A stretch of DNA of 64,000 bases from an uncultured Verrucomicrobiae bacterium (GTDB lineage: Bacteria; Verrucomicrobiota; Verrucomicrobiia; Limisphaerales; Palsa-1400), in the NCBI GenBank assembly GCA_963702845.1, contig OY969763.1:4736001-4800000 (forward strand), in the 5' to 3' direction. Numbering within the stretch: position 1 is the first letter of the stretch; each line of letters starts with the position of its first letter. A program made the translations under genes and the position numbers. Below the pieces are notes generated by a model. It did not search any database, was not told the DNA's origin, and was given only the letters and a program-made list of their open reading frames with translations. Positions 1 to 60,780 of this stretch are shown here, piece after piece.

Positions 1-3000
1 CTGGAACTACAACGGCCCCACCAACGGTGCAGGCTCCGGTGCCAGCGTCAAAACCGCCGCCATTTCCTACAGCGCCGACAATGTCACTTATACAACAAAC
101 CTTCCGAGTGCCAACTTCAACGCCGCGCCCCTTCTCTTCACCAACTTCGGCCAAACCATCGACATGGGAGGAGTCTCAGCCCGTTACGTTCGCTTGAACG
201 TCACCACCATTTACTCCACCACCACAACCAGCAACCGCGTCGGCCTCGCCAAAGTCCAATTCATTGACGACACCGTCCCACCGACGGTAATCCTCGCCAC
301 CCGCAATTTCTCCGCCAACCAGGTCACCGTGCAGTTCTCCGAATCCATCCTGCCCTCAACCGCAACCAACATCGCCAACTACGGCATCCAGTCCGGCGGA
401 ACAAGCGCAACCATCCAAAGCGCCACGATGGGCACCTACAGCGACACCGTCGTCCTCCAAACGTCGCTACTCGATACAAATCTCACCTACACCATCACCG
501 CCCAAAACATCCGCGACGCCGCCAACACTATCAGCATCGCCAGCACCAATTTAACCATTGGCTCCGAATTAGTCGCGTGGCTCCAAGCCGATAACGGTGT
601 CACCGCCGACGGCAGCGGCTTCGTCAGCCAATGGAACGACCAATCCGGCAACGCCAATAACGCAGTCAATGCCACCAACGCTACCCAACCCACCCTGTCC
701 AGCGGCGTAATCAACGGGCTTCCCGCCGTGCACTTCGACGGCACATCCCAACTTCTCGAAATCCCATTCAATTCCACCCTCGTGGCCAATCGCGATTTCA
801 CTTTCTACATCGTGATGAGCGCCGACAGCGCGGACCCGGGCGCCGTGCAGGGCCCCATCAGCCTCTGTTACACCAACGTCCCCGGCCACTTTGATTTCCA
901 AATCGCGCGCACTACAGGCAAACTCTCGTTCCTTCGCGGCAATCGCTATGGACTATCCTCATTCGCCGCCACTGCTGCGATTACTCCGGGCCAATATTAC
1001 CTCGTCTCCTTCGTCATGCGCGGCACCAACGCGACCGCTTACTTGAACGGAAGCTTCAACGGTCGCAGCGCATTTACCACTGGAACATTCACGGTAGGAA
1101 ACGCCGTCCGAATCGGCCTGCGACAAGACTTAGCCACGAAATTCCGTGGAAATATTGCTGAAGCCATGCTGTTTCGCGGTGCCGTTTCAGACACCGAACG
1201 TTTGAATCTCGACACCTACATCGCCAACAAATACGCCCTCCCCATCGTCACCCTCGCTATCACCCAACAACCGACCAGCATCACCCGCCTCGCCGGCCAA
1301 CGCGCATCATTCGGAGTTGTCGCAACCGCCGGTTCGCCGACCATAAACTATCAATGGCAAAAAGGCGGCGTGAATATTCCCAACGCAACCAACTCCACTT
1401 ATACAACGCCCGTTACACTAGCCGACACCGGCACGTCTTATCAGGTGATCGTTTCCGTTCCAGGCGGATCGACCGCGACGAGCACGGCCGCGACCCTCAC
1501 TGTCCAGGCAAACACCCAAGCCCCGACCCTCATGTCCGCCAGCCGAGTTGCCAACAGCGCCACCGATATTCTCCTGGCTTATTCCATTGCAATGAATCCT
1601 GCCAGCGCGACCAGCATAGCAAATTATTCGCTCAACAACGGCGCGACAATTTCGTCCGCAATTGCTGGCAGTGCACCCAATCAGGTCATATTGACAACTT
1701 CCGGCCTGACCTCATCCAACGCCTATTATCTCTCTGCCCAAAACGTAAAGGACACTTTCAACAACACCATGGTCCCGACTTCAACGCTCGTGGTGCCCGC
1801 CAATCTCTCGATCTGGCTCAAAGCCGATGCCGGTGTCATTACCGATATTCCAAGCTCTATCAACGAATGGGACGACCAAAGCGCCAACACCAATAACGCT
1901 CTCCAATTTTCCCAATCCGATCGAATGCCCACCTACGCTTCCGGTGCCATCAACGGTTTGCCCACGGCCCGCTTCGATGGACTCAGCAACTATCTCGAAG
2001 CCGCCTCTTCCCCGAGCCTCGCCTTCAACGGCGACATGACCATCTACGTCATTGCCAATTTCGCCGACTTCACCGGCCCTCGCGAAATCCTTGGCAAAAC
2101 CCTCGCCAATCAACCCGCGCCATTTGATTACTACGCCCAAAACGCAACCACCCTGCGCTTCTATCGCGGCAACGGCACCGTCAACAGTTCCGCCGTCGGT
2201 GCAAAAAATATTTCAGCCGGCTCGCCTCATCTCCTCTCCGTCACGATGCAAGGCACAAACGTCAGCCAATATCTCGACAGCGCCCTCAATGCCACCGGCG
2301 GACTTTCCATAACCATTGCCGACGCCGGCACGCCTCTCAAAATCGGCTCGCGCGACGATCTTTTCCAGTTCATGAAAGGCGACATCTCCGAAATTATCAT
2401 CTTCAACTCCTCGATCTCAGCGAATGACCGCGCCGCCATCGACGGCTATCTCGGTGCAAAATATTTCCCAATCTCCTTCACCCAACAACCATCCGATGCC
2501 GCCGTCATCGAAGGCGCCACCGTGTCCTTCAACACAGCCGTTTCCGGAGTCGGTGTCTCCTATCAATGGTACGACGTCACCGCCGGAGGTTCAGTCGCGC
2601 TTCCGGGCCAAACCAGCACCAACCTCGTCTTCACCGCGCAAGCCACCCAGGACCAACATCAATATGCAATGGTCGTCACGGCAGGATTAACTTCAGTGAC
2701 CAGCTCCATCGTCACCCTCACCGTCCAAAGCAGCGCTCCCGTCATCACCTCCGATCTCCCGGCCGAATTACTCGCCTACACCGGCTCCACCATCAAACTC
2801 GCCGTAACCGCCCTTGGCTCCGCGCCCATCGCCTATCATTGGCAAAAGAATGGCGCAAACTTATCCGACACCGCGCAGCTCACCGGCTCCCATAGCAACA
2901 TCCTCACCATCGCCAACGCCCAGGCAGGCGACGCTGGCAGTTACCAACTCCTTCTCTCCAATTCCGTCGGCCCCAACAACAGCGTCCTCGCAACACTCGT

Positions 3001-3823
3001 CGTCGAATCGCGCCCGACCTTCAACACGGACGGCAATGGTTGGAAACTCAATGGCGGCTCAGGCATCGCCAACAATGTGCTCACCCTCACCGACGGCGCC
3101 GCCAGCCAAGGCCGCAGCGCCTACTTCACCTATCCGCTCTACATCAGATCCTTCGGTGCCGCCTTCACCTATCAAGACGTCAACACCGCAGGCGCAGACG
3201 GCGCTACCTTCATCCTTCAAAACGCCCCCGCCGGCATCTCAGCACTTGGCTCTGTCGGTGCCGGTTTAGGCTACGGCGGCATCACGCCCAGCTTCGCCAT
3301 CGAGTTCAACATTTTCGCGAACAACACCGTCGGCATCGCACTCCGCACAAACGGCGTCACCGGCAAACCCTACACAGCAACCACCCCCGTCAACATCGCC
3401 AGCGGTGATCCCATCAACGTCACAATTCTCTACGCCAACGGCACCCTCCAACTGACCCTTCAGGACACCATCACAACCGGTTCCTTCTCCACCAACCTCA
3501 CCATCGATCTTCCGACCGCACTCGGGGCCGACACGGCCTACGTCGGATTCACCGGTGGCAGTGGCGCAACCACCTCAACCCAACAAATCAGCAACTTCGC
3601 ATACCTGCCCTACCCAACCCTTTCCGCCCAACTCAACGGCAGTGGCAAAATCCTCCTCTCCTGGCCCGCGTCCATCGGTGGATACAACCTCCAAACAAAA
3701 TCCGACCTCAGCGCTGGCACATGGCAAAACTCCGGCGCGCCCATCACCCTCACCAACGGCCAAAACCAACTCCAGATCACACCAGTTGGCAGCGCCAATT
3801 TCTACCAACTCATCCTGCCGTAG
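1..3823 (+). CDS. Large secreted multidomain protein (discoidin/F5-8-like, Ig-like, two LamG-like, L-type lectin domain, Verrucomicrobia-type C-terminal domain); 5'-truncated by window
   Basis: Frame is open from base 2 (WNYNGPTNG...) into ORF 164..3823. It has two repeated WLxADxGV...W.DQS LamG-like modules, ITQQP...YQW Ig repeats, a legume-lectin motif (GADGATF, AYVGFTGGSG) and a C-terminal LSWP..GYNLQ...L...W segment. Confidence 0.8.
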   Translation, partial: WNYNGPTNGAGSGASVKTAAISYSADNVTYTTNLPSANFNAAPLLFTNFGQTIDMGGVSARYVRLNVTTIYSTTTTSNRVGLAKVQFIDDTVPPTVILATRNFSANQVTVQFSESILPSTATNIANYGIQSGGTSATIQSATMGTYSDTVVLQTSLLDTNLTYTITAQNIRDAANTISIASTNLTIGSELVAWLQADNGVTADGSGFVSQWNDQSGNANNAVNATNATQPTLSSGVINGLPAVHFDGTSQLLEIPFNSTLVANRDFTFYIVMSADSADPGAVQGPISLCYTNVPGHFDFQIARTTGKLSFLRGNRYGLSSFAATAAITPGQYYLVSFVMRGTNATAYLNGSFNGRSAFTTGTFTVGNAVRIGLRQDLATKFRGNIAEAMLFRGAVSDTERLNLDTYIANKYALPIVTLAITQQPTSITRLAGQRASFGVVATAGSPTINYQWQKGGVNIPNATNSTYTTPVTLADTGTSYQVIVSVPGGSTATSTAATLTVQANTQAPTLMSASRVANSATDILLAYSIAMNPASATSIANYSLNNGATISSAIAGSAPNQVILTTSGLTSSNAYYLSAQNVKDTFNNTMVPTSTLVVPANLSIWLKADAGVITDIPSSINEWDDQSANTNNALQFSQSDRMPTYASGAINGLPTARFDGLSNYLEAASSPSLAFNGDMTIYVIANFADFTGPREILGKTLANQPAPFDYYAQNATTLRFYRGNGTVNSSAVGAKNISAGSPHLLSVTMQGTNVSQYLDSALNATGGLSITIADAGTPLKIGSRDDLFQFMKGDISEIIIFNSSISANDRAAIDGYLGAKYFPISFTQQPSDAAVIEGATVSFNTAVSGVGVSYQWYDVTAGGSVALPGQTSTNLVFTAQATQDQHQYAMVVTAGLTSVTSSIVTLTVQSSAPVITSDLPAELLAYTGSTIKLAVTALGSAPIAYHWQKNGANLSDTAQLTGSHSNILTIANAQAGDAGSYQLLLSNSVGPNNSVLATLVVESRPTFNTDGNGWKLNGGSGIANNVLTLTDGAASQGRSAYFTYPLYIRSFGAAFTYQDVNTAGADGATFILQNAPAGISALGSVGAGLGYGGITPSFAIEFNIFANNTVGIALRTNGVTGKPYTATTPVNIASGDPINVTILYANGTLQLTLQDTITTGSFSTNLTIDLPTALGADTAYVGFTGGSGATTSTQQISNFAYLPYPTLSAQLNGSGKILLSWPASIGGYNLQTKSDLSAGTWQNSGAPITLTNGQNQLQITPVGSANFYQLILP

Positions 3824-14885: not shown

Positions 14886-15242
14886 TATTTCCATCGACAA
14901 TCCTATTAATGCCCGTTTGAGCTACCAATTTTCTGCGCTTCGGCCGGAATGATATAAACGGTCGTGAGAAGGTTCTCCACTACCTCGAACGCTGCGTATA
15001 ACCCATCCTCGGTATTCGCTTTGATTTCGTGGGCTGCTCCATTTCCTAGAACCCGTATTTGCTGCAAAATGTCGCGCCTTCGGCGGTGATGACACCTCGC
15101 TGTGTTAAGTCATTAATCCGTTGCTTGAGATCGTTGCAGGTTGGTGGCGCCATTAACTGGGCCGCGTCGGCCCGATGACTTCAGCGCCCTCACTTCGAAA
15201 TCACAAAATATTTGGCGTCAGTCCTTGATGAGCCGTAAACAC

Positions 15243-15983
15243 CTACCAATACAAATTAGTCCGACTAGGTGCCGGATAATCCGACGGATTATCCCCAAGC
15301 ACCGGTGGGAAAGCAAAATACGCAACATGCCCGTCGCCAAAGAGCATGTTGAAACGACGCTGGCCTTTGTCGTTGTGCCACCACGTGCTTGAGTCGGTGC
15401 CAACGTCGTTCGATGGGAGCTCCCAATCCCAATCACCTTGGATAATTTTATTGCCCGGACTAGTCGCAATTTCACTCGCTTTGATGGGCACGGCCCCATC
15501 GGCATAAGACGGGTCTGAGTCCGCAGTGACATGTTGAACCATCCAGTCGTCCACGTCGTGTTGCGGGCAGTAACTATTTCCATAAGACACGAAACAGTTA
15601 TCCACCTGGTACCTGGCTTCGCCCCTGTCCGAGGGACAGCGCCAGGCCGTCGCAGCGGGTACATATCGATTCAAAACCCGGTTGGCATAGTCGTTGGTAG
15701 TGCCGAAAGCAGCGGCGACACCCGAATCAAGAGTATCGGCGCCCCGTTGGCCTCCAGCCGAAGCCCAACCGCGAATGCGGGGGTACCAATCACTATTATC
15801 GCTGACGTACATCTGCCAGCCCAAGCCGATCTGATGCTGGTTGCTGGTGCACTGCGCCAGTTGGGCCTTCTTTTTGGCCCGGCTCAGCACTGGCAGCAGC
15901 AACGCGGCCAGGATCGCGATAATGGCGATGACCACCAGCAACTCTATCAGCGTGAATGCCCGCCTCATTTTCATGTCGTCCAC
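15243..15983 (-). CDS. Prepilin-type N-terminal cleavage/methylation protein with H-X9-DG C-terminal motif (DUF1559-like)
   Basis: [42 protein letters not shown]. Confidence 0.9.
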
Positions 15984-15986
15984 TCG

Positions 15987-16409
15987 TTATATGTGCGCCG
16001 ATTGGGCGCAAACGCCGTGCATTCGCCTCTTCAACTCTTCAGCAACCCCCCGCGCATCCTTCGGCGTGATAAAAATCGTTTCGCAAGCAATCCGTCCCCT
16101 GATCGTAATCGCCAACCACTCACCCACCAACCGACTTTTATAAGAATAAACAGCAGGTCCGTAACGCAATAATGGCAGCAGTAAAACCACCTTGTACCAC
16201 GGCCACACCTCCACCGATGTCACGTCATCATAGCTGACCTTCCGCTTTCCCATTGCCAATGGGTTAGGAATTTCAAATCCATCGACCAAAAACTGAATAC
16301 CATCATAAACCAACTTTTCCGCTCCAGAGCCCTGGGCGACTTTTCTGAAACCCTTCAACACGAGGACTCCGACAATTCCGAAAAATAAAAGGACCAGAAA
16401 AATTTCCAT
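15987..16409 (-). CDS. Hypothetical membrane-anchored protein
   Basis: N-terminal TM helix, GAGGAG RBS, co-oriented with the downstream prepilin-type gene. Confidence 0.6.
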   Translation of the reverse strand: MEIFLVLLFFGIVGVLVLKGFRKVAQGSGAEKLVYDGIQFLVDGFEIPNPLAMGKRKVSYDDVTSVEVWPWYKVVLLLPLLRYGPAVYSYKSRLVGEWLAITIRGRIACETIFITPKDARGVAEELKRRMHGVCAQSAHI

Positions 16410-17109
16410 GGCGTCTCCTCACTCAGTGCATCCGACGAATCTCGTGTGGATCGTTGGCCTTCATTTGCCGATGTTGCCTCTCCGAAGAACGCCACGCAAG
16501 TCCTCGCAAATCACTTTCCTAGTAAAAGCTTATTTCCGCTAAGAAGGTTGCCCCACCAAAACCCATAAACTCCTTCGATGATTGAGCCAGTAAAATCGGC
16601 AGCAATCCCTTCCCATCTGCGAAATCCCGTGATTCCTCTCTTTGTGCTCTCTGCGATCTTTGCGGTTAAATATTCTTCAACTTGCCGCAGCCGCGCGTTG
16701 GACGTTGGCCATTCGCCTCTCAAGTTTTGAGTTTTAAGTTTCCTCTCTGCGCCTTTGCTTCTTTGCGCCTTCGCGTTGAAAACCTCCTTCAACTTCCATG
16801 CCAACCACCTAAAAACGCACGATTTCGTCATAAAAAAGTGCTGTTTCTTTCCCTGATTTCCCTCCTTTCCCTACATTTTTTGACCAGTCGCTACTTCCTG
16901 CCATAATTCACCTACGCGGGTCGCTGGGACCGAATGGCCCCACGCGCAAGCGTGCCGCTGAGCAATAACGCTCGTCGGCCTGTCCTCCATAGCTTCACGC
17001 GAAGGAGGAAACATTAAAATGTACACTTATGCACAACGCTCGCACTTGTCATCACACCTTGGCGTCCTTCGCGCCCTTCGCGAGACAAGAAGGGAACCGG
17101 AACTTCCGG

Positions 17110-17159
17110 CCGAACCATTCCGAACCAAACCGAAGTAATCCGAACCATTCCGAAGATAA
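17110..17159 (+). repeat. Five 10-bp tandem units (CCGAA-N5) directly upstream of the terminase small subunit
   Basis: CCGAACCATT CCGAACCAAA CCGAAGTAAT CCGAACCATT CCGAAGATAA. Confidence 0.8.
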
Positions 17160-17164
17160 AAATT

Positions 17165-17881
17165 ATGAACACTGAAACCAGCACCCACCGCCGTAAAGGC
17201 CACATCGCCCGATTGCCGAAGGCCCTTCGCGACAAGGTCAACTCCATGCTCGATGATGGCGCGACCTACGGCGCGATCATCGAGGAACTAAACAAATCCA
17301 CCAACCCTCCCCTGCCCCATCCCGTCACCGAAGACAACGTGGGCACATGGAAAGAAGGCGGCTACCAGGATTATTTGCGCAACCAACAATACCTCGACGA
17401 AATTCGTCTGCGCCAATATCCATCCGAAGACTTCGCCCAGAACTTCGACGCCACATCCGTCGGCAACGCCACCATTCAACTCGGCATGCTCCACGTCTTC
17501 GAATCATTGCGCGCCCTCGGCTCAGGCAAACTCGACCTCAGCAACGATCCCATGGCCTTTGCCCGCGTCATGAACTCCGTCGCGCGCGCCAGCCGCGAAC
17601 TCATGCTCCTGCAAAAATATCAGGATGCCAACGCCCTCGCGCGGCTGAAACTCCAACCCCTTCTCGATCCAGAGCGCGAACTCACCGACAGCGAAACCAA
17701 AGCCATCGTCAGCCAGGTCGACAAAATCCTCGGCTTATCCGGCCCCTTACCTGACCTCGTTTCAATTGGTAGGGACGATCGCGCGGTTCGCGGAGCGAAC
17801 AACAAAACAATTTGTTCTAATGTCACGTCGTCCGTTCCGCCGTCGTCCGCTCTCAACACTCAACCATCAACCAACAACTAA
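17165..17881 (+). CDS. Mu gp27-like (DUF3486) protein, putative terminase small subunit
   Basis: N-terminal RKGHIARLPKALRDKVNSML..G.TY..II..L HTH-like motif; 2 bp upstream of terL. Confidence 0.65.
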   Translation: MNTETSTHRRKGHIARLPKALRDKVNSMLDDGATYGAIIEELNKSTNPPLPHPVTEDNVGTWKEGGYQDYLRNQQYLDEIRLRQYPSEDFAQNFDATSVGNATIQLGMLHVFESLRALGSGKLDLSNDPMAFARVMNSVARASRELMLLQKYQDANALARLKLQPLLDPERELTDSETKAIVSQVDKILGLSGPLPDLVSIGRDDRAVRGANNKTICSNVTSSVPPSSALNTQPSTNN

Positions 17882-17883
17882 TT

Positions 17884-19668
17884 ATGACCATCGACAACGA
17901 AAACCATATCAACCGCCACTTCATGCCGCATCAAATCCTCTGGATTCGCGGCGAAGAACCGATCCACGCCATCGGCAAACAAGCCGTCGCCCTCGCCGAA
18001 AAATCCGTCCGCATCGGCTGGACCTACGCCGACGGCTTTAAAAACGTGCGCAAACGGATCCTCCACAAAAACCGCGATTACCTTTTCGCCACCAAAGATT
18101 ATGCCAGCGCGCTCGAGTACATCAAACAATGCTACCAATTCGCCGAAATCTTCAACGTCACCCGCAGCATCAAATCACACGGCGAAGAAATCCTCAGCGT
18201 GAACCGTCTCGACGACAAAGGTCGTCCATCTGCCTTCACCGAAGACGTCAAAGTCGGCGTGATCAAATTCGACAACGGCTCGCGCATCATCGCCTTCAGC
18301 GCCAACCCACAAGCCATGGCCGTCTACGGCGGCGACGTCGGCCTCGACGAATTCGCCAAACATCCCAATGCCCGTCTCCTCTGGGAGACCGCCCAGGGCC
18401 GCGTCACCTGGGGTTATGATTTGGCCGTGTGGTCGAGTCACGATGGCGAAGACACATTGTTCAACGAATTCGCACAGGAAGCACGGGTGAGTGTAAGAAA
18501 ACCGATTGACGTAATTGAACGCGACAGCGTCTTGGACTGCGGCAGTCCTCTGCCGCTTTTGGGGTTCGACGGAGTCGCGGGTTCAAATCCGAAAGCGCCA
18601 GAGGGGCCGAACGTCGGCCTCGCGGAGCGCAGTCCAAAAGCTTCGCCAGTCCGAACGCCCGAGACGACTCCGAACATCCCTTGGAACCTTTATTACAAGG
18701 TCACCATCCAGGACGGCATCAACAACGGCCTCGTCGAAGTCATCAACAAATCGCGCGGGACTAAGTTTACCGCGGACCAATTCCTGGCCGATTGCAAAGC
18801 ACGCGCGCGGGATGAGGAAGTTTTCCAACAAGCGTATATGTGCAATCCGCTCGGTGCGGCCACCAATCACATCGTGGAATGGAGCGCGATCGAACGTTGC
18901 CGTCACGATTACAAGATCGAGCGTGTCCATCTCGAAGCGGACGAAGTCCAACAACAATTCGGTGCGTTCAATCCGTCGAGTGCGCGCGAACGGGAAAACA
19001 ACATCGAAGCGTTCCTATGCAAAAAGTTTCCATCGCTGGATTTCAATCCCATCCACAGCACGCCCACGTTCCGGCTCGGCTTCGACGTCGCCGCCAGTGG
19101 CACGGGTGATCTGGCCGTCATTTACATCGACGAGAAAAAGGGGGACGAACATTGGCTTCGTGCCTTGTTCACCTGTCGCACCGAAGACTGGCACTTTCTC
19201 AAGACGGTCCTGTTCTATTTCATGAACACGACCGGTTCGCTCAAAGGCGCCGGCGACGAAACCGGTCTGGGCCGCCAGATCTGTTGGGAAGCGGCGCAGA
19301 AATTCGGGTCGCGCTGGAAATCGGTGAACTTCGCCAGCAAGAAGCACGACCTTGGTTTCAACCTGATGAACCAGTTGAGCGTCGCGCAAAAGCGTTTCCC
19401 GAGCAGCGAACACGACATCGCAGGCGACTACTATGCGCTCAAGAAAATGTTCAACGGCAACAAATGGAATTTCGCCGAAGGCAAAAACGCGCTCAACCCG
19501 GCGAGCCATTGCGACATCGCCTGGGCCGGCGCATTGGCCAGCGAAGCGCCCAAGAGCGGCGGCGGCATCGGCATTTCCGTGCTGATGGAGGGCGGCACGT
19601 GGTCGACGTATCACACTGACGATCCGATTCCCAAGCCGACGCCGTATCCGGGTAAGGCGGTTTGGTAG
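17884..19668 (+). CDS. Mu-like (gp28) terminase large subunit
   Basis: Walker A EKSVRIGWT, Walker B DVGLDEFA, coupling motif SSH, F.Q.YMCNP, and RNase H-like nuclease motifs GFDVA, DETGLG, HCDIAWAGALA. Confidence 0.85.
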   Translation: MTIDNENHINRHFMPHQILWIRGEEPIHAIGKQAVALAEKSVRIGWTYADGFKNVRKRILHKNRDYLFATKDYASALEYIKQCYQFAEIFNVTRSIKSHGEEILSVNRLDDKGRPSAFTEDVKVGVIKFDNGSRIIAFSANPQAMAVYGGDVGLDEFAKHPNARLLWETAQGRVTWGYDLAVWSSHDGEDTLFNEFAQEARVSVRKPIDVIERDSVLDCGSPLPLLGFDGVAGSNPKAPEGPNVGLAERSPKASPVRTPETTPNIPWNLYYKVTIQDGINNGLVEVINKSRGTKFTADQFLADCKARARDEEVFQQAYMCNPLGAATNHIVEWSAIERCRHDYKIERVHLEADEVQQQFGAFNPSSARERENNIEAFLCKKFPSLDFNPIHSTPTFRLGFDVAASGTGDLAVIYIDEKKGDEHWLRALFTCRTEDWHFLKTVLFYFMNTTGSLKGAGDETGLGRQICWEAAQKFGSRWKSVNFASKKHDLGFNLMNQLSVAQKRFPSSEHDIAGDYYALKKMFNGNKWNFAEGKNALNPASHCDIAWAGALASEAPKSGGGIGISVLMEGGTWSTYHTDDPIPKPTPYPGKAVW

Positions 19669-19800
19669 GGCGAGGCTCCCGCCGAGCTGGGTTCGCGCAA
19701 CGTGCGGAAAGGCTCAGCAGGAGCTTCGCCCTACCGAGTTTTCGAAAGAACGGCCGCGCGCGGAGCCGGAAGGTCCGGTTCGCAAACGCGCCCTACCAAC
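19664..19800. repeat. GTAG-type REP-like palindrome
   Basis: GGTAGGGCGAGGCTCCCGCCGAGC ... GCTCAGCAGGAGCTTCGCCCTACC, plus a further CGCGCCCTACC end. Confidence 0.75.
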
Positions 19801-19834
19801 GCGGAAATTCGTACGCGCGTGAACATGGTTACGT

Positions 19835-19884
19835 CTGCCGATTTGGAAATCGGCGATACGGCAGGCTCGGAGGCCTGCGATACG
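19835..19884 (+). repeat. REP-like double hairpin downstream of argS
   Basis: CTGCCGATTTGGAAATCGGCGATACGGCAGGCTCGGAGGCCTGCGATACG; direct copy at 21660-21709. Confidence 0.85.
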
Positions 19885-19887
19885 CAG

Positions 19888-21618
19888 CTACATCGTCTCG
19901 GTGACTTCGATGCCGAGGACTTCCAAGCCTTGCTTGAGGACTTTGGCGGTCACTTCGCACAAGGCGAGGCGAGCGGCGCGTTGGGGACCTTCGGCTTTGA
20001 GCACGGGGCAATTCTCGTAGAAGCGCGCGAAGTGGCCGGACAAATCGTAGAGATATGTGCAGAGAAAATTCGGGCGGTAATCCTCGGCGACGGCTTCGAG
20101 GACCAGGCCGAAGTTCAACAGGTGTTTGGCCAAAGTGAGTTCTTCGGGAGCGCCGAGCGGGATTTCGCCGCCGCCACCGGCGTTATCGAGATCGCCTTTG
20201 CGGAAAATACTGCGGACGCGGGTGTAGGAGTATTGCAGATACGGCGCGGTGTTGCCCTGGAGCGACAGCATCTTGTCCCAACTGAAGACGTAATCGCTCT
20301 GGCGATTTTGGGAGAGGTCGGCGTATTTGATGGAGCCGAGGCCGACGACCCGCGCGATTTCGAGGCGCGCTTCTTTGGTCATGTCGGCGTTTTTTTCGCT
20401 GACGACTTTGAAGGCGCGTTCTTCGGCTTCGTCGAGCAGGTCCTCGAGTTTGACGGTGTCGCCCGAGCGGGTTTTGAACGGTTTGCCGTCTTCACCGAGG
20501 ATCGAGCCGAACCAGACGTGGGCCAGTTTGACGCCGGTTTCCGAATGCCATTTGCGGAAAGCGGTGAAGATCTGGCGAAAGTGCAATTGCTGGCGACCGT
20601 CGGTGACGTAAATGATTTCGTCCGGCTTCGCGCCCCACGTGCCGCCTTCCATGCGGAATTGCAAGGTGGCGAGGTCGGTCGTGGTGTAATTGAAACCGGC
20701 GTCGCTCTTTTGCACGAGCGCGGGATGTTCTTTCAAATCGGGAACATCATCAAACGGGACGATGAGCGCGCCTTCGCTCTCGCGGGCGAGACCGCTTTTT
20801 TTCAGGTCTTCGATGACGTTTTTGAGGCGTGGATTGTAATAGCTCTCGCCGTAGGTGTAATCGAATTTGACGCCGAGCCGGTTATAGACGCGTTCGAATT
20901 GCGTTTCGGAGAGCGCGATCATATCGCGCCAAATTTGCAGGTTCTCCTCGTCGCCGCTCTGGAGCTTGACGAGTTCCTGGCGCGCTTCGTCGAGCACGGC
21001 CGGATTTTGTTCGCAGGCGGCGTTGACCAATTTATAGAGGCGCTCCATTTCGCCGATGGGGTCCTTTTCGAGCGCGGCTTTGTCGAGGTGCTGTTTCCAG
21101 CCGACGAGCAATTTGCCGAACTGCGTGCCCCAATCGCCGATGTGGTTGTCGGTCACGACGCGATGGCCGAGCAGACGCAGGACGCGCGCGAGGGAATCGC
21201 CAAGAATGGTCGAGCGAATGTGACCGACGTGCATCGGCTTGGCGACATTGGGCGAACTGAAATCGATCACGACCGTGCGCGGCTTGGTCGTCTTTTGGAA
21301 AAACAGGTGTTCGCCGCGAAGCGCGCCAACGAGTGTTTTGCCGATGGCGGATGGTTTGAGGGTGAAATTGAGAAAGCCGGCGCCGGCGATCTCGACTTTG
21401 TCGCACCACTCGGAGACGTCGAGCTTGGCTTTGACGTCGGTGGCCAACTGGCGCGGGTTCATCTTGCGCTCTTTGGCGAGCGACATGAGAGCGTTGCTTT
21501 GGTAATCGCCGAACTTGGAGTCCGTTGCAGGGCGCACGAGAACGCGGGAGACATCCGCGTCCGGGAGAATGGCGCGAACGGCTTCCTGCAATTTTTGTTC
21601 GAGAAAGATGTGTAGCAC
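19888..21618 (-). CDS. argS: Arginine--tRNA ligase
   Basis: FGDYQSN, DFSSPNVAKPMHVGHIRS (HIGH-like), NHIGDWGTQFG, FKTRSG, GNTAPYLQY motifs. Confidence 0.98.
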   Translation of the reverse strand: MLHIFLEQKLQEAVRAILPDADVSRVLVRPATDSKFGDYQSNALMSLAKERKMNPRQLATDVKAKLDVSEWCDKVEIAGAGFLNFTLKPSAIGKTLVGALRGEHLFFQKTTKPRTVVIDFSSPNVAKPMHVGHIRSTILGDSLARVLRLLGHRVVTDNHIGDWGTQFGKLLVGWKQHLDKAALEKDPIGEMERLYKLVNAACEQNPAVLDEARQELVKLQSGDEENLQIWRDMIALSETQFERVYNRLGVKFDYTYGESYYNPRLKNVIEDLKKSGLARESEGALIVPFDDVPDLKEHPALVQKSDAGFNYTTTDLATLQFRMEGGTWGAKPDEIIYVTDGRQQLHFRQIFTAFRKWHSETGVKLAHVWFGSILGEDGKPFKTRSGDTVKLEDLLDEAEERAFKVVSEKNADMTKEARLEIARVVGLGSIKYADLSQNRQSDYVFSWDKMLSLQGNTAPYLQYSYTRVRSIFRKGDLDNAGGGGEIPLGAPEELTLAKHLLNFGLVLEAVAEDYRPNFLCTYLYDLSGHFARFYENCPVLKAEGPQRAARLALCEVTAKVLKQGLEVLGIEVTETM

Positions 21619-21659
21619 AGCTATCGGTTAAATCTGGCGCTGCTTTGTGTCTCTGACAC

Positions 21660-21709
21660 CTGCCGATTTGGAAATCGGCGACACAGCAGGTTTGGAAACC
21701 TGCGATACG
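21660..21709 (+). repeat. REP-like double hairpin upstream of argS
   Basis: CTGCCGATTTGGAAATCGGCGACACAGCAGGTTTGGAAACCTGCGATACG. Confidence 0.85.
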
Positions 21710-21720
21710 GCGCGACTCCT

Positions 21721-22188
21721 TTATTTCGGCGTAGAGAATTTTTTGATCACCTCGAACATGGCGGCGGCGTCCGGGGCTTGTTCCAGTTCCAGGCGAAAAT
21801 CTTTCATGTGCAGCAATTTTGCGATGCTGGCCAAGGTATGAAGATGTTTCTGGAACTGGCCTTGCGGGACGAGGAACAACATGACGAGGTTGACCGGCTG
21901 ATTGTCGAGCGCGTCGAAATTGACGCCGGTCTTGGAACGGCCGAGCGCGCCGACGACTTCGGTGATGAGATCGGTCGAGGCGTGCGGGATGCCAATGCCA
22001 AAGCCGATCCCGGTGCTCATGGAGGTTTCGCGCTTCTTCACGACAGCGGCGATGGCCTCCCGATTTTCGGGCCGGATCTTTTTGGTGGCGACCAGATTTT
22101 CGATCAGTTCATCGATTGCATCCCAACGATTGGCAGCTTTGAGCTGGGGGAGCAAATTTTCCGGACCTAAAATATCGCCTAAATTCAT
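21721..22188 (-). CDS. PTS IIA component (fructose/nitrogen-regulatory, PtsN-like)
   Basis: RETSMSTGIGFGIGIPHA with the phospho-His, and F.ALDNQPV; start set at ATG 22188. Confidence 0.9.
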   Translation of the reverse strand: MNLGDILGPENLLPQLKAANRWDAIDELIENLVATKKIRPENREAIAAVVKKRETSMSTGIGFGIGIPHASTDLITEVVGALGRSKTGVNFDALDNQPVNLVMLFLVPQGQFQKHLHTLASIAKLLHMKDFRLELEQAPDAAAMFEVIKKFSTPK

Positions 22189-22413
22189 ACGAAACGCTTG
22201 TTCATTTCGCCTGAAGCGCAACCGCAATTCAAGAGGAATGTTCGCCGAACGTCGGCCTCGCACGAGGAAGAGACCAAGAAGAAACGCAAAACGAAGAATT
22301 AAGATGCGCTCGTCCGCAAAAAAAACTATTCTGTAGTATTGCGTAAGCGCCGCATTTCGTTAAAAAATAGCAAAATTTTATATTCGACCACAACGGGTCG
22401 GTGACTGTCAGAG

Positions 22414-25400
22414 ATGAGTTCGCGAAAAAACCACAACATTTTATCAGGGCCACCGCCTAAACAAGGGCTTTACGATCCGCAATTTGAGCACGACGCATGC
22501 GGCGTAGGTTTCGTCGTTAACGTCGCTGGGGCAAAATCGCACAAGATCATTTCTGACGCGCTGACGATCCTGATGAATTTGGATCACCGCGGCGCGTGCG
22601 GATGCGAAGTGAACACTGGTGACGGCGCAGGCATTCTGATGCAGATGCCGCACAAGTTCCTCGAACAGGCGTGTGCGGAAGCGAAAATTAAATTACCGGC
22701 GGCCGGTCAATACGGCGCTGGAATGGTTTTTCTGCCGCGCAATGCGACGGCTCGTAAAACGTGCGAAAAGCAGTTTGAGCAAATTGTCGCTGAAGAAGGA
22801 CAGACATTTTTGGGTTGGCGCACGGTGCCTTGCGATAATTCTTCCCTGGGCAACACGGCGCAGGCTTCGGAGCCGTTTATTCGGCAGGTATTTATTGGTC
22901 GGTCGGCGGATTTAACCGATGACATGGCGTTTGAGCGGAAGCTTTACGTTATTCGCAAACGCGCGGAACGGGCACTTCGCTACGGCGAAATCAAAGGCGC
23001 GCACGTTTTTTACGTCTGCTCGCTGTCCTGCAAGACGATGGTTTATAAGGGCATGTTGCTGACGAAGCAGATGGACGCGTATTTCCCGGACTTGAAAAAT
23101 CCGGCGATGGAAAGCGCGCTGGCGCTGGTTCACTCACGGTTCAGCACGAACACGTTCCCAAGCTGGGATCGCGCGCATCCGTATCGTTACATCGCGCACA
23201 ACGGCGAAATCAACACGCTCCGCGGCAACATCAATTGGATGCACGCGCGCCAGGCGATGTTTGAATCGAAGTTGTTCGGGGACGATCTGAAGAAACTTTT
23301 GCCCATTATTAATACGGATGGGTCTGACTCGGGGATGTTCGATAACTGCCTGGAGTTGCTCGTGCTCTCGGGACGTTCATTGCCGCATGCGATGATGATG
23401 ATGATTCCGGAGCCGTGGTCGAATCACGAGACCATGAGCGACGAGAAGAAGGCATTCTATGAATATCATAGCTGCCTGATGGAGCCTTGGGATGGTCCGG
23501 CGGCGGTGGCGTTTACGGACGGCAAACTAATTGGCGCGTGCCTGGATCGTAATGGTCTGCGACCGTCGCGTTATTACGTGACCAAGGATGGCTTTGTCAT
23601 CATGGCGTCGGAAGTGGGAGTGCTCGATATCGCGCCGGAAAACATTTTGCAGAAAGGGCGCTTGCAGCCCGGTCGCATGTTCCTTGTCGATACGGAGGAG
23701 GGCCGCATCGTTGCCGACGAAGAGATCAAACAGGAAATCGCGACGGAACATCCGTATCGCCAATGGCTCGATAAATATATGCTCGAGCTGGCGCGCGTTC
23801 CGGAAGCAGAACATCTCGCTGAGCCTTCGCACGAAACGGTGATGCAACGGCAGCAGGCGTTCGGTTATACGTTCGAAGATTTGCGCATCATCATGGCGCC
23901 GATGGCGCGCGATGGCGTGGAAGCGATTGGCTCGATGGGCACGGACACGCCACTGGCGGTTTTGTCCGATAAACCGCAGCTGCTCTATAACTATTTCAAG
24001 CAATTGTTCGCGCAGGTCACGAATCCGCCGATCGATTGTATTCGCGAAGAATTGGTCACCTCGGCTGAAACGACTATCGGCACAGAAGGCAATTTGCTCG
24101 AACCGAAGCCTGAGAGTTGCCATTTGATCGAGCTGAAGACGCCGATTCTGACGAACGAAGAATTTGCGAAGCTCAAGCACATTAATCAGCCTGGATTTAA
24201 ATCCAAGACGCTTTCAATTTTGTTCAAGGCGTCGGATGGCGAAGAGGGTTTGGCGAGCGCGATGCAGAATTTGTATGAACAGGCCAGTCGCGCGATTGAG
24301 CAAGGCGTTAATATTCTGATTTTGTCGGACCGCGGAGTTAGTAAGGATCTTGCGCCGATTCCGGCGTTGCTGGCGGTTTCGGGCATGCATCATCATTTGA
24401 TTCGCGAAGGCACGCGCACACGCGTGGGCCTGGTGCTCGAATCGGGCGAACCGCGGGAAGTGCATCATTTCTCGTTGTTGATCGGTTACGGCGCAGGAGC
24501 GATCAATCCGTATGTGGCGTTCGAGACGCTTGACGACATGATTCGTCAGGGCTTGCTCGTGAAAGTCGACCACAAGACGGCGTGCAAGAATTTTGTTAAG
24601 GCGGCGGTCAAAGGCGTGGTGAAGGTCATTTCGAAGATGGGCATCTCCACGATCCAGAGCTATCGCGGCGCGCAGATTTTCGAAGCGATTGGTCTGCATC
24701 CGCACGTTGTTGAAAAATATTTTACGGGCACGGCTTCGCGCGTTGGTGGCATTGGCCTGGATGTGATCGCGACTGAAGCGCAAAAGCGACATCAACACGC
24801 GTTCCCGGATCGCCAGGTGAACGGCCACACGTTGGATGTGGGCGGTCAATATCAATGGCGTCAGGACGGCGAGCATCACCTGTTCAATCCGCAGACGATT
24901 CACAAGCTACAGAAGGCTTGCCGCACGGGTGATTACAAAACTTTCAAGGAATACTCCGAGTTGGTTAACGACCAGTCGAAGAAACACGCGACGTTGCGTG
25001 GTTTGTTGGAGATTAAGTTTCCGAAAAAACCGATTTCGGTTTATGAAGTTGAATCGGTTGAGTCAATTTTGACGCGCTTCAAATCGGGCGCGATGTCTTA
25101 CGGTTCCATCAGCAAGGAAGCGCACGAAGCGCTGGCCATCGCGATGAACCGCATCGGCGGCAAGAGCAACACGGGCGAAGGTGGCGAAGATCCCGCGCGT
25201 TACAAACTTGAGGCGAATGGGGATTCGAAGAACAGTGCGATTAAGCAGGTTGCCTCTGGCCGTTTCGGCGTAACGAGCGAATACCTCGTGATGGCGCAGG
25301 AACTGCAAATCAAGATGGCGCAGGGCGCAAAGCCGGGTGAAGGCGGGCAGCTTCCAGGAGCGAAAGTTTTCCCATGGATTGCGAAAGTTCGCTATTCCAC

Positions 25401-56892: not shown

Positions 56893-59800
56893 TTATTTTA
56901 ACTTCTGCCCAACTTCTTCCACCCAAACCGTAGGCGGCAACGCATACGGGCGGAACGTCTCGAGTTGCCCCTCTTGCTCGTTATAGAACAACGCGCGGTG
57001 CAAGCCGAGGCTGCCCGCTTTCGGATTATCAATTAGGCTCGCCGAATCACTGGCGCTCATCTGGAACAGCACGCGCATTTCAAATTCCGTCAGGGCTTTG
57101 CGGCTGAGGAACCGGTTCACGTTGTTGTAAGTGTCGCAAGTGACGATCACGTGAATGCCCACGCTCGGACCCTCGTTGATTAATTGATTGAGCAGCGCCG
57201 ACGGTGCCGCAGCTGTTTCCGCGCTGCTCGAAAAGGAAAAATCTTCTTCGTAACGCAATTTGCCGAACCGCTGAACGTCGCGGATGAAGATAAACATCGA
57301 AGGCGCATCGGCGGGATTTGGAGACTCCGCGCGACTACGCATTTCAGCGACAACCTTCGCGAACGTTTCACCAATGTCGTGCGGCGTCAATCGAGTCACC
57401 TCATGCGGAATCGCCGCAACCACGCGATTGACCAGGTCCGCCTGATTCGAATCCGGCGGCGAACTGTCGAGAACCATAAACCGCACCGCATCTTTCGGAA
57501 ACTGCGCCGCCAATGAAATCATTCCAGTCGTGACGATGCTCAGCACCGCCTCTTCGCGTTGGCCCACGATCAATAAATTGTTGCCGCTTTGCCGGCGGAA
57601 CACCGCTTCCGTCGGGCCTTTGATCGAGTTTGGCGCACCCAGCCACATGTGGGCGAGGTCCGGTTTCTTAGTGGGTGGCGATTGCAGCAGTTGAGCAAAC
57701 GCGACATTGTCGCGGACGTCCGCCGGGGCGTCGCCTTCGTAAACAAGCGGCGCAGGAAACCGTTTACCGCTTTGTGCCGCTTGCTTGTCGCACGCGTTCC
57801 AGATAAGTGTCGCGTTCCTCATCCGAAAGCCACACCGCCTGAAACGGACTGTTCGCTTCGAGCGCGCCGGCGCTGTCGTTATAAATACCTTCGCCGGGTC
57901 GCGTCAGCATGCGCGGCGCGGGATTGCTATCATCCATGATCAGGTAGGCATCGGCTTCGTTACATTGCAGCGCGATGCGAATGACCATCTGCCCAAGCGT
58001 CGTGCGCGCGACCGTGTAAGCGCCGCCCAACGTCTGCGAACCAAGGATGACGTGAATACCGAACGCGCGACCCTGCCGGACAATGCGGTCCAACAACACG
58101 GAAGCACTTTGGAAAATCTTATCGTCCTCAGTGAAAAATTCCTGGAATTCGTCGATCAGCAGCAAGGTCCGCGGCATCGGTTGTCCGGTTGCTTTACGAT
58201 AACCCGGAAGGTCCTGAACGTTATGTTCGCGGAACAATTCACCACGCCGCTTCAATTCCGCGTCGAGTCGCTGGAGCACGCTCAAACCAAATTCGCGATC
58301 GCTTTCAATCGCGACAACACGCGCGTGCGGCAATTGGTGCGTGGCGTAACTCTTAAATTCCACACCCTTCTTGAAATCGATCAAATAAAATTCAACCTGC
58401 TCCGGACTGCACCACAAAGCCAGGTTCGTGATCATCACGTGGAACAGCGTCGATTTGCCCGAACCGGTTTTACCCGCGATCAGCGCATGTTGCCGCGTGC
58501 CTTTGCCAATCGCCAGATACTGGAACTTCGTTGCGCCGGTGCGACCAATCGGCACTCGCAATTCGTTGCCCGTGTCGAGCGACCACAGTTCTCCGTCATG
58601 CGGCGCGACGTGCTCGAATGGAACTTCAACGCGGTTCGAATCACGACTGCTTCGCCCGACTTTGTGAATCAATTCAGTCGCCAGTTCCGCAGTCGGCGGC
58701 TCGTCCAATGTAACATTCACACCCGGCAACGATTCTCCTTCGATCAGGTAATTCGTCAGCGTTTCGCGCGGCACAGGTTTGCTGACGATATGCGCCCCGC
58801 TCTTGCGCAAATCCTCCGCCACCGCCGGGTCCAGACGCTGCCGCGTGTCCCAATGAATCAACGTATACACCCCACAACGCGCTCCGCTCGTCGCGATGCT
58901 CATCAGCCGTCGAATCGCGACCTCGCTGAAGTTGTGTGGAAAATCGGCCACGACCAAGAAATGATATTTCTCAGCGATGTTGCCCGCCTGCTCGTTATAT
59001 TCGACGATCGTGCTGTATTCATTGCGCAAATACATCTGGATGACTTTTTCCATGTGCGCGTTGAGTTCGCCCAGCTTTTGATCAATTTGCTCCGCTTGCG
59101 TCCATATCCGGCTGTTGATGAGATGCTCCTCGTGATCGGCGAGGTGCATGAAGCTGGCAAAATTTTGTCCAAGTTCAACAGGATCGATAATAGTGAAACT
59201 CAAACGTCCCGGCGGCGCCGCCGCGAGCAGGCGCAATACGATGTTGTTCAATGAACCAATCATCTGCTCGCGCCCGACGTCGCCTTCAAATAAAATCGAG
59301 CCTTGTTCCGGATACTGTCAGCAATAGCGGGACCTGAAGTTGCGACGGCCCGGGCAACTGCAACTTGCGAGTCCTTCCTGCGGGTCGCGACCAGCTTATC
59401 GACATCGACGTCCATCGAACCAAACCGCGCCACATGCTCGAATTTCGCCGGGGCAGTCCAACCCTCCACCAAATCACGACTCCACGGCGGAAACATTTTC
59501 TGAGACAACGCCGCGCTCTCCTTCAACTCGCGATAAATCGGCTCCAGCCGATTGTTCCATTCCGCGGTAATCGCGCGCATTTCATTTTCAAACGCCGCGT
59601 TATGTTTTGATTCCTGCTGCTGATAACGGTCCGTCGCCTCTTTTTTGCGCGATTCAATTTCAGCGTTGATGCGGCCCAACTCTTCATTCCGTTCGCGGGC
59701 AATCCGTTCCAGCCGCGCCTTATGCATCGCCTCGTGCCGCGCCACAACGCGCTTCCCTTTCTCTTCCACCAGAGGCTCGGAATCTATCTTATATTGCTGC

Positions 59801-60780
59801 GCTCCGTTCAGCGTCTCGCTCCACTCCTGTTGAATCCGTTCCGTTGTCGCCTGAAAATCCGATTCAATCTGCGCCAATGTCCGAACGCGCCGCGTGTCGG
59901 CCTTCTCCAAACAAATTGCGTGAAGATTACGCGCTTTGCCGAGCGCATCAGAAATTTCCTTCGCCAGCGCTCGCCCTTGCCGCGCCCCAATCTGGTGAAA
60001 TGTCCCGGCCAATACAACCAGCGCACCCGCAATTGCCGCCTGCGACCCCAGTCGTCACGGTCTGAACGCTGAGCTGGTGCAAAATCGGAACCATCGCAAA
60101 AAGCCCAGCCGCAATAATCACCCACGCGACAAAATATTTGAAAACTTTCGTGATGAGCAACCGATTGAAACGCGCAATGTTTTCATCTGCCTTCGAACGC
60201 AACTTTTGCAACTCAGTTAGTAAATCGTGTTCGTTCCCCTCGCGCTGCAAACGGCGTCGCCTGCGCCTTCGTCAACATGCGGGAAAATCTCCGGATACCC
60301 GCTGAACGAATCCTTCGCCGCAGCTTCAGACCGAAATAATGCCTCGTTCTCTTCAGCCAAATGCCGTTTGAAATCTTCACACGCGCGCTCTGTCGCGGCG
60401 ATGTCCGTTTCGCGTTTGCGTTGCGACTGCAGCGTCTCGCGTTGCAGTTTATATTTACGCGACCCCTCAATGTGTTCGATGCGTTCGATCGCCTGTTTCT
60501 TCGCGACCTTATGCGCCTTCGCAATAACGCCGCGCCGCTTCTCGTGCCGAGACTGTTCGTTTACGCCCAGCTTCTTGAACGCAACCTCTGCTTCATCCCT
60601 GCGGGCTGCCAACGTCAACGCCAACTCCTCCAAAGCCGCATCGCGATGCTTCTGATCACGCGTCAGCTTCACCTTCAATTCCTGGCCGGCCTTCTCTTCG
60701 CGCGCGGAAAGATCCGCGATGGCGCTGCGAAGTGCCTGCACCAGGTCGCGAACTTTGGAAACTCCGAGCGCGTTACTCAC
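56893..60780 (-). CDS. FtsK/SpoIIIE-family (EccC/EssC-like) membrane ATPase, ~1290 aa, split by six apparent +1 frameshifts
   Basis: Consecutive ORF fragments give a coiled coil, TM hairpin, coiled coil, a degenerate FtsK-like domain, an intact domain (HALIAGKTGSGKST, IDFKKGVEF, LLLIDEFQ, RQGRAFGIHVILGSQ) and a degenerate C-terminal domain (NEGPSVGIHVIV). Confidence 0.85.

Follow-up and report, generated by a model that had tools for sequence, protein, structure and literature searches.

Terminases are the most virus-specific enzymes known and serve as a hallmark for prophage calls. Phage satellites, among them the phage-inducible chromosomal islands (PICIs) and Staphylococcus aureus pathogenicity islands (SaPIs) with their small terminase subunits (TerS) and the capsid-forming PICIs (cf-PICIs), have terminase genes in the chromosome, take capsids or capsid genes from elsewhere and pack DNA that is not that of a phage. 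The PICIs, cf-PICIs and P4-like satellites each form a discrete island with an integrase, a replication or primase gene and a regulatory module. Here we analyze a pair of genes for the small and the large terminase subunit (TerS and TerL) at positions 17165..19668 of a 64,000-nucleotide stretch of DNA from an uncultured soil Verrucomicrobiae bacterium (contig OY969763.1, positions 4,736,001 to 4,800,000, forward strand), the whole of which is called the window in the following. Judged by its sequence, the pair is one of six intact lone pairs that selection has kept in this genome, and the architecture of a short-period repeat array followed by TerS and TerL recurs in many Verrucomicrobiota. 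We tentatively read it, with somewhat less than an even chance of being right, as an active and self-contained array-TerS-TerL cassette that would start packaging at its own array and fill capsids provided in trans.

The locus differs from the phage satellites in that no integrase, replication module, repressor or attachment (att) site was found and in that its copies are old and divergent and form no discrete excising island; a Pfam search of the 64 kb returns no integrase, replication/primase or regulatory family of the satellite type. With the Mu-like and other temperate phage terminases of Verrucomicrobiota (PF11985 with PF03237 or PF17289) the pair shares the two families, the gene order, the tight coupling and the motifs. 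Unlike them, it has no adjoining portal, protease, capsid, tail, transposase or repressor gene, it stands behind a host-type promoter repeat, and six intact copies lie among housekeeping genes.

The gene transfer agent (GTA) of Rhodobacter capsulatus, RcGTA, is similar in that phage-derived packaging genes are kept in the chromosome under selection, that no particle could carry the whole system, and that structural genes lie at other loci (a multilocus genome, PMC5026251). RcGTA has one terminase and a head-tail cluster, whereas the present genome has six terminase pairs and one head set, and no tail genes turned up in it. The RcGTA TerS (PMC6854486) is devoid of the N-terminal DNA-binding domain, which the authors propose as the defining trait of a GTA-type TerS, while the window TerS keeps a gp27-like N-terminal region, is predicted to bind DNA and has a probable cognate array. 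Because TerS keeps this region and its probable site, no tail genes were found to complete a head-tail set, and the pair occupies no conserved locus with the conserved synteny of vertical inheritance, membership in the GTAs is not established. The sequence-only reading, an earlier account of this DNA, had suggested a domesticated GTA-like system; what stands of it is that the pair is one of several scattered, selected orphan pairs with a separate, tail-less head set, so that "domesticated" is plausible, whereas the GTA-like character is not shown.

The same reading had placed an intact Mu-like TerS-TerL pair at this locus, and its coordinates prove exact (Table 1), with the TerL start 2 nt past the TerS stop. 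The window TerS is matched by PHROG 426, "terminase small subunit" (E 5e-8), and weakly by PF11985 (Mu gp27; 18.5 bits, E 0.0028, curated cut-off 28), to which a TerS paralogue at 2.18 Mb matches with 29.7 bits, above the cut-off. Positions 1-133 of the gp27 profile align to the window TerS from residue 14, and the comparison with the paralogue at 5.84 Mb shows the best conservation in the N-terminal 60 residues. TerL is matched by PF03237 above its cut-off (26.0 vs 22 bits) and by two "terminase large subunit" families, PHROG 2 (7e-13) and PHROG 5909 (5e-12), the latter covering residues 382-552. PF17289 does not match the window TerL, whereas the TerL paralogues of the same genome do match it, and a sequence search of the PDB with the TerL alignment profile gives no match at E <= 0.01.

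Table 1. Features of the terminase locus, in window positions
Feature	Position	Strand	Remarks
Dispersed promoter-bearing repeat, 124 nt	16789..16912	+	about 258 nt upstream of the TerS ATG
10-bp-phased array CCGAACCAWT, 4.5 copies	17110..17154		ends 11 nt before the TerS start codon
TerS, 238 residues	17165..17881	+	Mu gp27/DUF3486-like; residues 8-198 conserved
TerL, 594 residues	17884..19668	+	FluMu gp28-like; ATPase and RNase H-like nuclease
In-frame insert in the ATPase-nuclease linker, about 62 residues (203-265)	18490..18678	+	from comparison with the second copy
TerL-argS intergenic region	19669..19887		hairpin 19664-19735; dispersed repeats 19755-19797 and 19804-19885
argS	19888-21618	-	convergent neighbor of TerL

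The catalytic motifs were checked in an alignment of the window TerL to 32 relatives and in a second one that took in TerLs of prophages as well as paralogues; in both, the window TerL keeps every family-invariant column. The N-terminal ATPase contains K40 in AEKSVRIGWT, the Walker B motif LDEF (D155, E156) and a WSS coupling motif, all conserved in orphan and prophage-borne TerLs alike. The K40 motif resembles the deviant, lysine-first Walker A of the lambda gpA type (Mitchell & Rao 2004) and may be one. In the C-terminal RNase H-like nuclease the acidic residues D401, D458 and D544 are invariant, and H542 is kept as well.

The orphan status of the pair is confirmed, as no portal, capsid, tail, transposase or integrase gene is found in the window with Pfam (66 open reading frames, ORFs) or with PHROG (16 ORFs). 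A profile scan over all six frames of the genome, which is a single contig of 6.03 Mb, likewise returns no further phage gene in the 64 kb, and the Pfam and PHROG scans detect no decayed phage remnant adjoining the pair. The scan reveals 8 TerL loci, 6 of them intact, namely the window copy, a copy at 5.84 Mb, five full-length distant paralogues (26-37% identity) and one copy bearing a TAG, together with 14 TerS-like loci. All of the pairs have housekeeping genes as their immediate neighbors (rluB-like and folD, purH, dnaK, bioB-like, miaA, and hom-thrC-lysC). The head genes of the whole genome amount to two portals of the PF04860 type, one HK97 capsid (PF05065), one S78 protease and one adaptor. 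The only head set (genome 5,238,501-5,258,500) comprises, in this order, the S78 protease, the HK97 capsid, a GH32-like host gene, the adaptor, a portal and a TerL, with gcvH behind it. The dispersed Mu-derived particle system that had been envisaged for this genome is not borne out: neither a Mu portal nor a Mu protease is detected anywhere in the genome by the profile scan and the PF06074 family search, a family that does match in an Akkermansia metagenome-assembled genome and in a complete Verrucomicrobiae chromosome (G041), and the sole head set is of the PF04860/S78/HK97 type. The Mu transposase family PF02914 has no match in the genome, which is uninformative, the control being without a match too.

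The TerL family is large. More than 756 proteins match the window TerL at E <= 1e-10, the best 120 all with E < 1e-212; many are named "phage FluMu gp28-like" (Joint Genome Institute, JGI) and one is labelled Chthoniobacterales. The TerL relatives reach 86% identity and the TerS relatives at most 51%. Close TerL orthologues occur in 4 of 40 related genomes. In one genome (G021) a Mu portal and protease I come behind TerL and form a true Mu-like head module, in another (G034) the lone TerS-TerL pair is seen again, and in a third (G037) a lone TerL containing a stop adjoins hisF. The Mu-type portal of the G021 prophage (L035:2734-4866, minus strand) bears a C-terminal PBECR1 nuclease domain (Barnase-EndoU-ColicinE5/D-RelE-like).

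A further 133 loci were gathered, their neighbors being classified by iterated profiles and clustering. Among the 108 full-length TerLs, 19 stand before a Mu portal and protease and 14 before a PF04860 portal and HK97 head genes. Another 26 lack a head gene in a downstream flank of 3 kb or more, and the contigs of the remaining 49 are not long enough for a decision; three pairs of orphan rows are the same assembly in two collections. The prophage-borne relatives share TerL at 40-67% identity, directly before PF06074 and PF10123 or before PF04860, S78 and HK97 genes. Around the 80 metagenome loci nearest to the window TerL (47-86% identity) there is no Mu portal and a single portal of the PF04860 type.

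A quick IQ-TREE calculation of 59 TerL rows, from which the 49 short-contig rows were left out, assigns the window TerL to a clade from soil Verrucomicrobiota in which 17 rows are orphans and 2 are head-linked, with a Shimodaira-Hasegawa-like approximate likelihood ratio (SH-aLRT) support of 100. Of the two head-linked rows, one branches at the base of the clade and has a complete HK97-type head module. The TerLs of the sister clade belong to prophages and are Mu- or HK97-linked. The five distant paralogues from the genome studied here group apart, next to a prophage TerL from a genome of the same family. Most of the closest relatives elsewhere are orphans too, and the orphan label needs at least 5-8 changes on this tree.

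In the complete 5.8-Mb chromosome of G041 (loci L219 and L221) terminase and head genes are likewise apart, and the head is of another type. There is one TerS-TerL pair at 2.14 Mb, and the head genes, a Mu portal, protease I and a capsid-like gene, are at 2.37 Mb, some 220 kb from the pair; no terminase and no tail-side clusters lie beside these head genes. A separate observation concerns a family of 308-375 residues without a Pfam or PHROG match, which recurs near lone pairs (L009:14187-15293, minus strand; L041:2098-3024; L040:17-946; L053:1-1041) and in one locus directly precedes TerL, in the place of TerS.

The ratio of nonsynonymous to synonymous divergence (dN/dS, or omega) was calculated by the method of Nei and Gojobori (NG86), with clade medians taken over the pairs with 0<dS<2. 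Between the window and the 5.84-Mb TerL it is 0.06 in the N-terminal ATPase half (dS 1.46) and 0.05 in the C-terminal nuclease half (dS 0.27), and the five-fold gap in dS between the halves shows a mosaic history. The window TerL and its three closest relatives give 0.11-0.16, the TerLs of the orphan clade a median of 0.25 (77 of 91 pairs usable), and the prophage-borne TerLs a median of 0.276 (116 of 276 pairs usable). By these values, which span 0.05-0.25, the lone TerLs are under strong purifying selection, with ratios as low as those of their prophage-borne relatives.

These ratios bear on ordinary prophage erosion, according to which the pair would be a functionless remnant of a Mu-like or HK97-like prophage that is intact by chance or recency. 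Such an origin would be in keeping with the real head modules in which the same TerL family occurs in relatives (19 Mu-type and 14 PF04860/HK97 out of the 108), the two broken copies in this genome (the TAG at 5.25 Mb and the frameshift at 5.84 Mb), the few relatives with close orthologues (4 of 40) and the host repeats inserted in both genes. However, no decayed phage remnant lies beside the pair, six intact pairs persist among housekeeping genes, omega equals that of the phage-borne relatives, 17 orphans form a clade, the promoter is of the host type, and the repeat insertions are in-frame and confined to the variable linker and the C-terminal tail. Measured against a cryptic prophage, the locus has no adjoining phage genes or pseudogenes, integrase or transposase, its frames are intact, and omega is 0.05-0.25. 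In PMC7744054, incomplete prophages are described as losing terminase and portal genes preferentially, so six intact pairs are not as erosion predicts. We therefore regard ordinary erosion as unlikely, and distinctly so.

The array upstream of TerS, whose units are spaced by one turn of the helix, is probably a TerS binding site, either a pac-like packaging site or an operator. Only two other CCGAA arrays with 10-bp phasing and at least 4 copies are present in the 6.03 Mb, where about 1e-4 would be expected by chance (estimated from 20,987 CCGAA occurrences), and both sit in gene-less stacks of differing 10-bp arrays. In a survey of TerS genes with enough flank, some of whose loci are duplicates or kin, an array with a period of 10, 11 or 20-22 bp is found at the TerS 5' end in 24 of 66 genes, compared to 14 of 600 control upstream regions, and just past the 3' end in 9 of the 66. 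The spelling of the array varies by locus, and TerS relatives at 46-51% identity have other spellings. The array resembles the pac regions of the Bacillus phages SPP1 and SF6, with direct repeats between the promoter or promoters and the start of the small terminase gene; in SPP1 the repeats extend across the promoters and the terS start (PMC4737164). The differences are that the present array is strictly 10-bp-phased and made of one 10-mer, that its spelling differs by locus, that the same array is copied in gene-less chromosomal cassettes, and that no phage genome is attached.

In the proposed mechanism, TerS would bind its own array, and probably also the two other chromosomal CCGAA arrays, and would bring TerL to the array. 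TerL would cut there and pump the adjoining chromosomal DNA into procapsids supplied in trans, the source of which may be the genome's own head set at 5.24 Mb or an infecting phage. Lying beside its own site, the cassette would belong to the DNA that is packed at the outset, and this would explain an integrase-free spread to new places. A wider version of this proposal, which we consider doubtful, is that virus-less, self-addressed cassettes (a private array, TerS and TerL) among core genes load themselves and neighboring host DNA into the capsids of others and spread by recombination through the flanking conserved genes, and so represent a new kind of element. No description of stand-alone terminase cassettes in Verrucomicrobiota was found in a literature search that did not cover subscription journals. 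If the cassette reading is true, it would imply a new, site-directed route of chromosomal DNA mobilization, unlike that of the GTAs, in an abundant and poorly cultured soil phylum, and it would provide natural matched sets of TerS and array for the study of DNA choice by small terminases, which is unsettled even for SPP1 and SF6. Lone terminase pairs would in addition cause false prophage calls.

The divergence between the copies can also be viewed in terms of anti-phage interference. The lone pairs would then compete for the procapsids of related infecting phages, or cut or mis-package their DNA, and so abort or dilute phage output, in the manner of the satellite modules that redirect packaging, with the other parts of a satellite missing. 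The window and 5.84-Mb TerLs are 88-90% identical, while their TerS proteins share only 30%, and a strongly constrained TerL with a fast-diverging TerS fits such a role, as do the many divergent specificities within one genome, the patchy distribution with its shifting genomic context, and the prophages with the same TerL family that are common in the phylum. The neighbors are however housekeeping genes and no recognizable defense islands (the PADLOC library was not scanned), the literature yielded no stand-alone TerS-TerL defense, and the gene-less array copies elsewhere in the chromosome are left unexplained. We find interference fairly improbable on balance.

The neighborhood of the pair on the far side, argS, is as the sequence-only reading had named it. 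The EIIA-argS order is kept in 6 of 6 relatives with flank, and in the same genus gltB is kept too, while TerS/TerL is beside argS in 0 of 7 relatives. The position of the pair beside argS is therefore not inherited vertically. In a same-genus genome argS is followed by a homologue of genome 4,863,978-4,865,438, which is 108 kb off here. The arrangement implies that an inversion has taken place and that the TerL-argS spacer contains one of its breakpoints. In another same-genus genome and in a metagenome contig this TerL type adjoins a gene that is found here at 0.94 Mb, and at that place (genome 939,900-940,290) only stacked 10-11-bp arrays of the GTCGC and TGCAA types precede the shared downstream gene.

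These rearrangements raise the alternative of DNA processing other than packaging. TerS would then be a regulator or targeting factor that binds the array, and TerL a nuclease powered by ATP, whose site-directed breaks would drive recombination or rearrangement at the arrays. The pair is located exactly at the synteny breakpoint, close relatives have it in a third context where this genome holds arrays alone, and the arrays are stacked in gene-less cassettes, all of which would suit this explanation. On the other hand, conservation is as high in all ATPase (translocation) motifs as in those of the nuclease, which suggests that TerL has kept its function as a motor, and the dispersed intergenic repeats could equally cause the breakpoints. 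We know of no precedent for a stand-alone terminase in non-packaging DNA processing, and overall we judge this explanation very unlikely.

Upstream of the array, the pair appears to use a promoter repeat of the host type that is enriched at phage-derived units. The repeat contains a sigma-70-like site, TTGACC (16880-16885) and TG-CATAAT (16902-16907) with a 16-nt spacer, which has 10 of 12 hexamer matches and the TG extension. There are 33 copies in the genome, 7 of which precede phage-derived genes (four before TerS units and three before parts of the head locus, protease-capsid and adaptor-portal). The other 26 copies stand before other, for the most part ordinary genes (parB, aconitase, atpD/C, release factor, acs and dnaB are examples); a number of these ORFs had no Pfam match. 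A dedicated regulon shared with the head set was considered and rejected, because the repeat precedes these 26 other genes and is missing from 4 of the 7 pairs, although it is still enriched at phage-derived units (7/33).

Several results weigh against the cassette reading. The 5.84-Mb TerL, for all its 88-90% identity to the window TerL, is frameshifted near residue 112, and the TerL of the head set carries one in-frame TAG; the orthologue of the latter in G001 (contig C585), a genome of the same genus, is without a stop. No tail or lysis gene was found in the genome (tape measure 0, sheath 0; other tail families were not searched), which leaves release and delivery without an explanation. 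The six intact TerLs split into two very distant clades (26-37% identity), and the docking of all six on one portal is hence in question. On the TerL tree the orphan label requires 8 changes, of which starred branches force at least 5, and the orphan state is therefore clustered yet of more than a single origin. As for the selection analysis, many of the dS values, those above 1, are near saturation, NG86 is a crude estimator, and some of the constraint could go back to a time when the gene was still carried by a phage. The promoter repeat is unspecific, being present at 3 of the 7 TerS-TerL pairs and absent from 4, and co-regulation of the pair with the head set appears to lack support from it. 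Finally, the isolated DNA-binding domain of the SF6/SPP1 TerS showed little preference for the repeats (PMC4737164), so recognition need not lie in repeats close to terS.

Both genes contain host repeats in frame, as had been noted before; the stretches 17767-17837 and 18512-18650 match dispersed genomic repeats. The first is a single repeat in the C-terminal tail of TerS. The second lies within the linker insert of TerL, where the match to the second TerL copy stops at 18490 and restarts at 18670, and consists of two repeats, 18512-18562 and 18585-18650. The insertions are limited to the variable linker and the C-terminal tail, and the frame is kept. The ATPase-nuclease linker is hypervariable and of low complexity throughout the family, and the insert is shared by a relative with 81-82% identity (P0004, on a 176-kb contig).

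Terminal repeats of a mobile unit were also considered. The sole pair, 17094-17110/19765-19781 (17 nt, 94% complementary), is not taken as an element end because roughly 0.16 such pairs are expected by chance and its arms are palindromic. Rfam gives nothing at E <= 0.1 on window 15000-22500.

The cumulative GC-skew minimum of the whole 6.03-Mb chromosome falls inside TerL, at window 18000-19000 (genome 4,754,000-4,755,000), and the maximum is at 2.22 Mb. By its skew the locus may be an origin of replication, but dnaA is 1.35 Mb off (at 3.40 Mb) and no DnaA-box cluster was seen at window positions 14-24 kb. Farther away in the window, an FtsK/SpoIIIE-family gene (57767-59263) lies among three ORFs without a Pfam match at 56896-60250 on the minus strand and may belong to a small unit for mobility or DNA transfer. 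At the other end, window 164-3823 on the plus strand encodes a secreted-type protein of 1219 residues with Laminin_G_3, Ig and lectin domains, in a stretch whose negative GC skew, about -0.3, is unusually strong.

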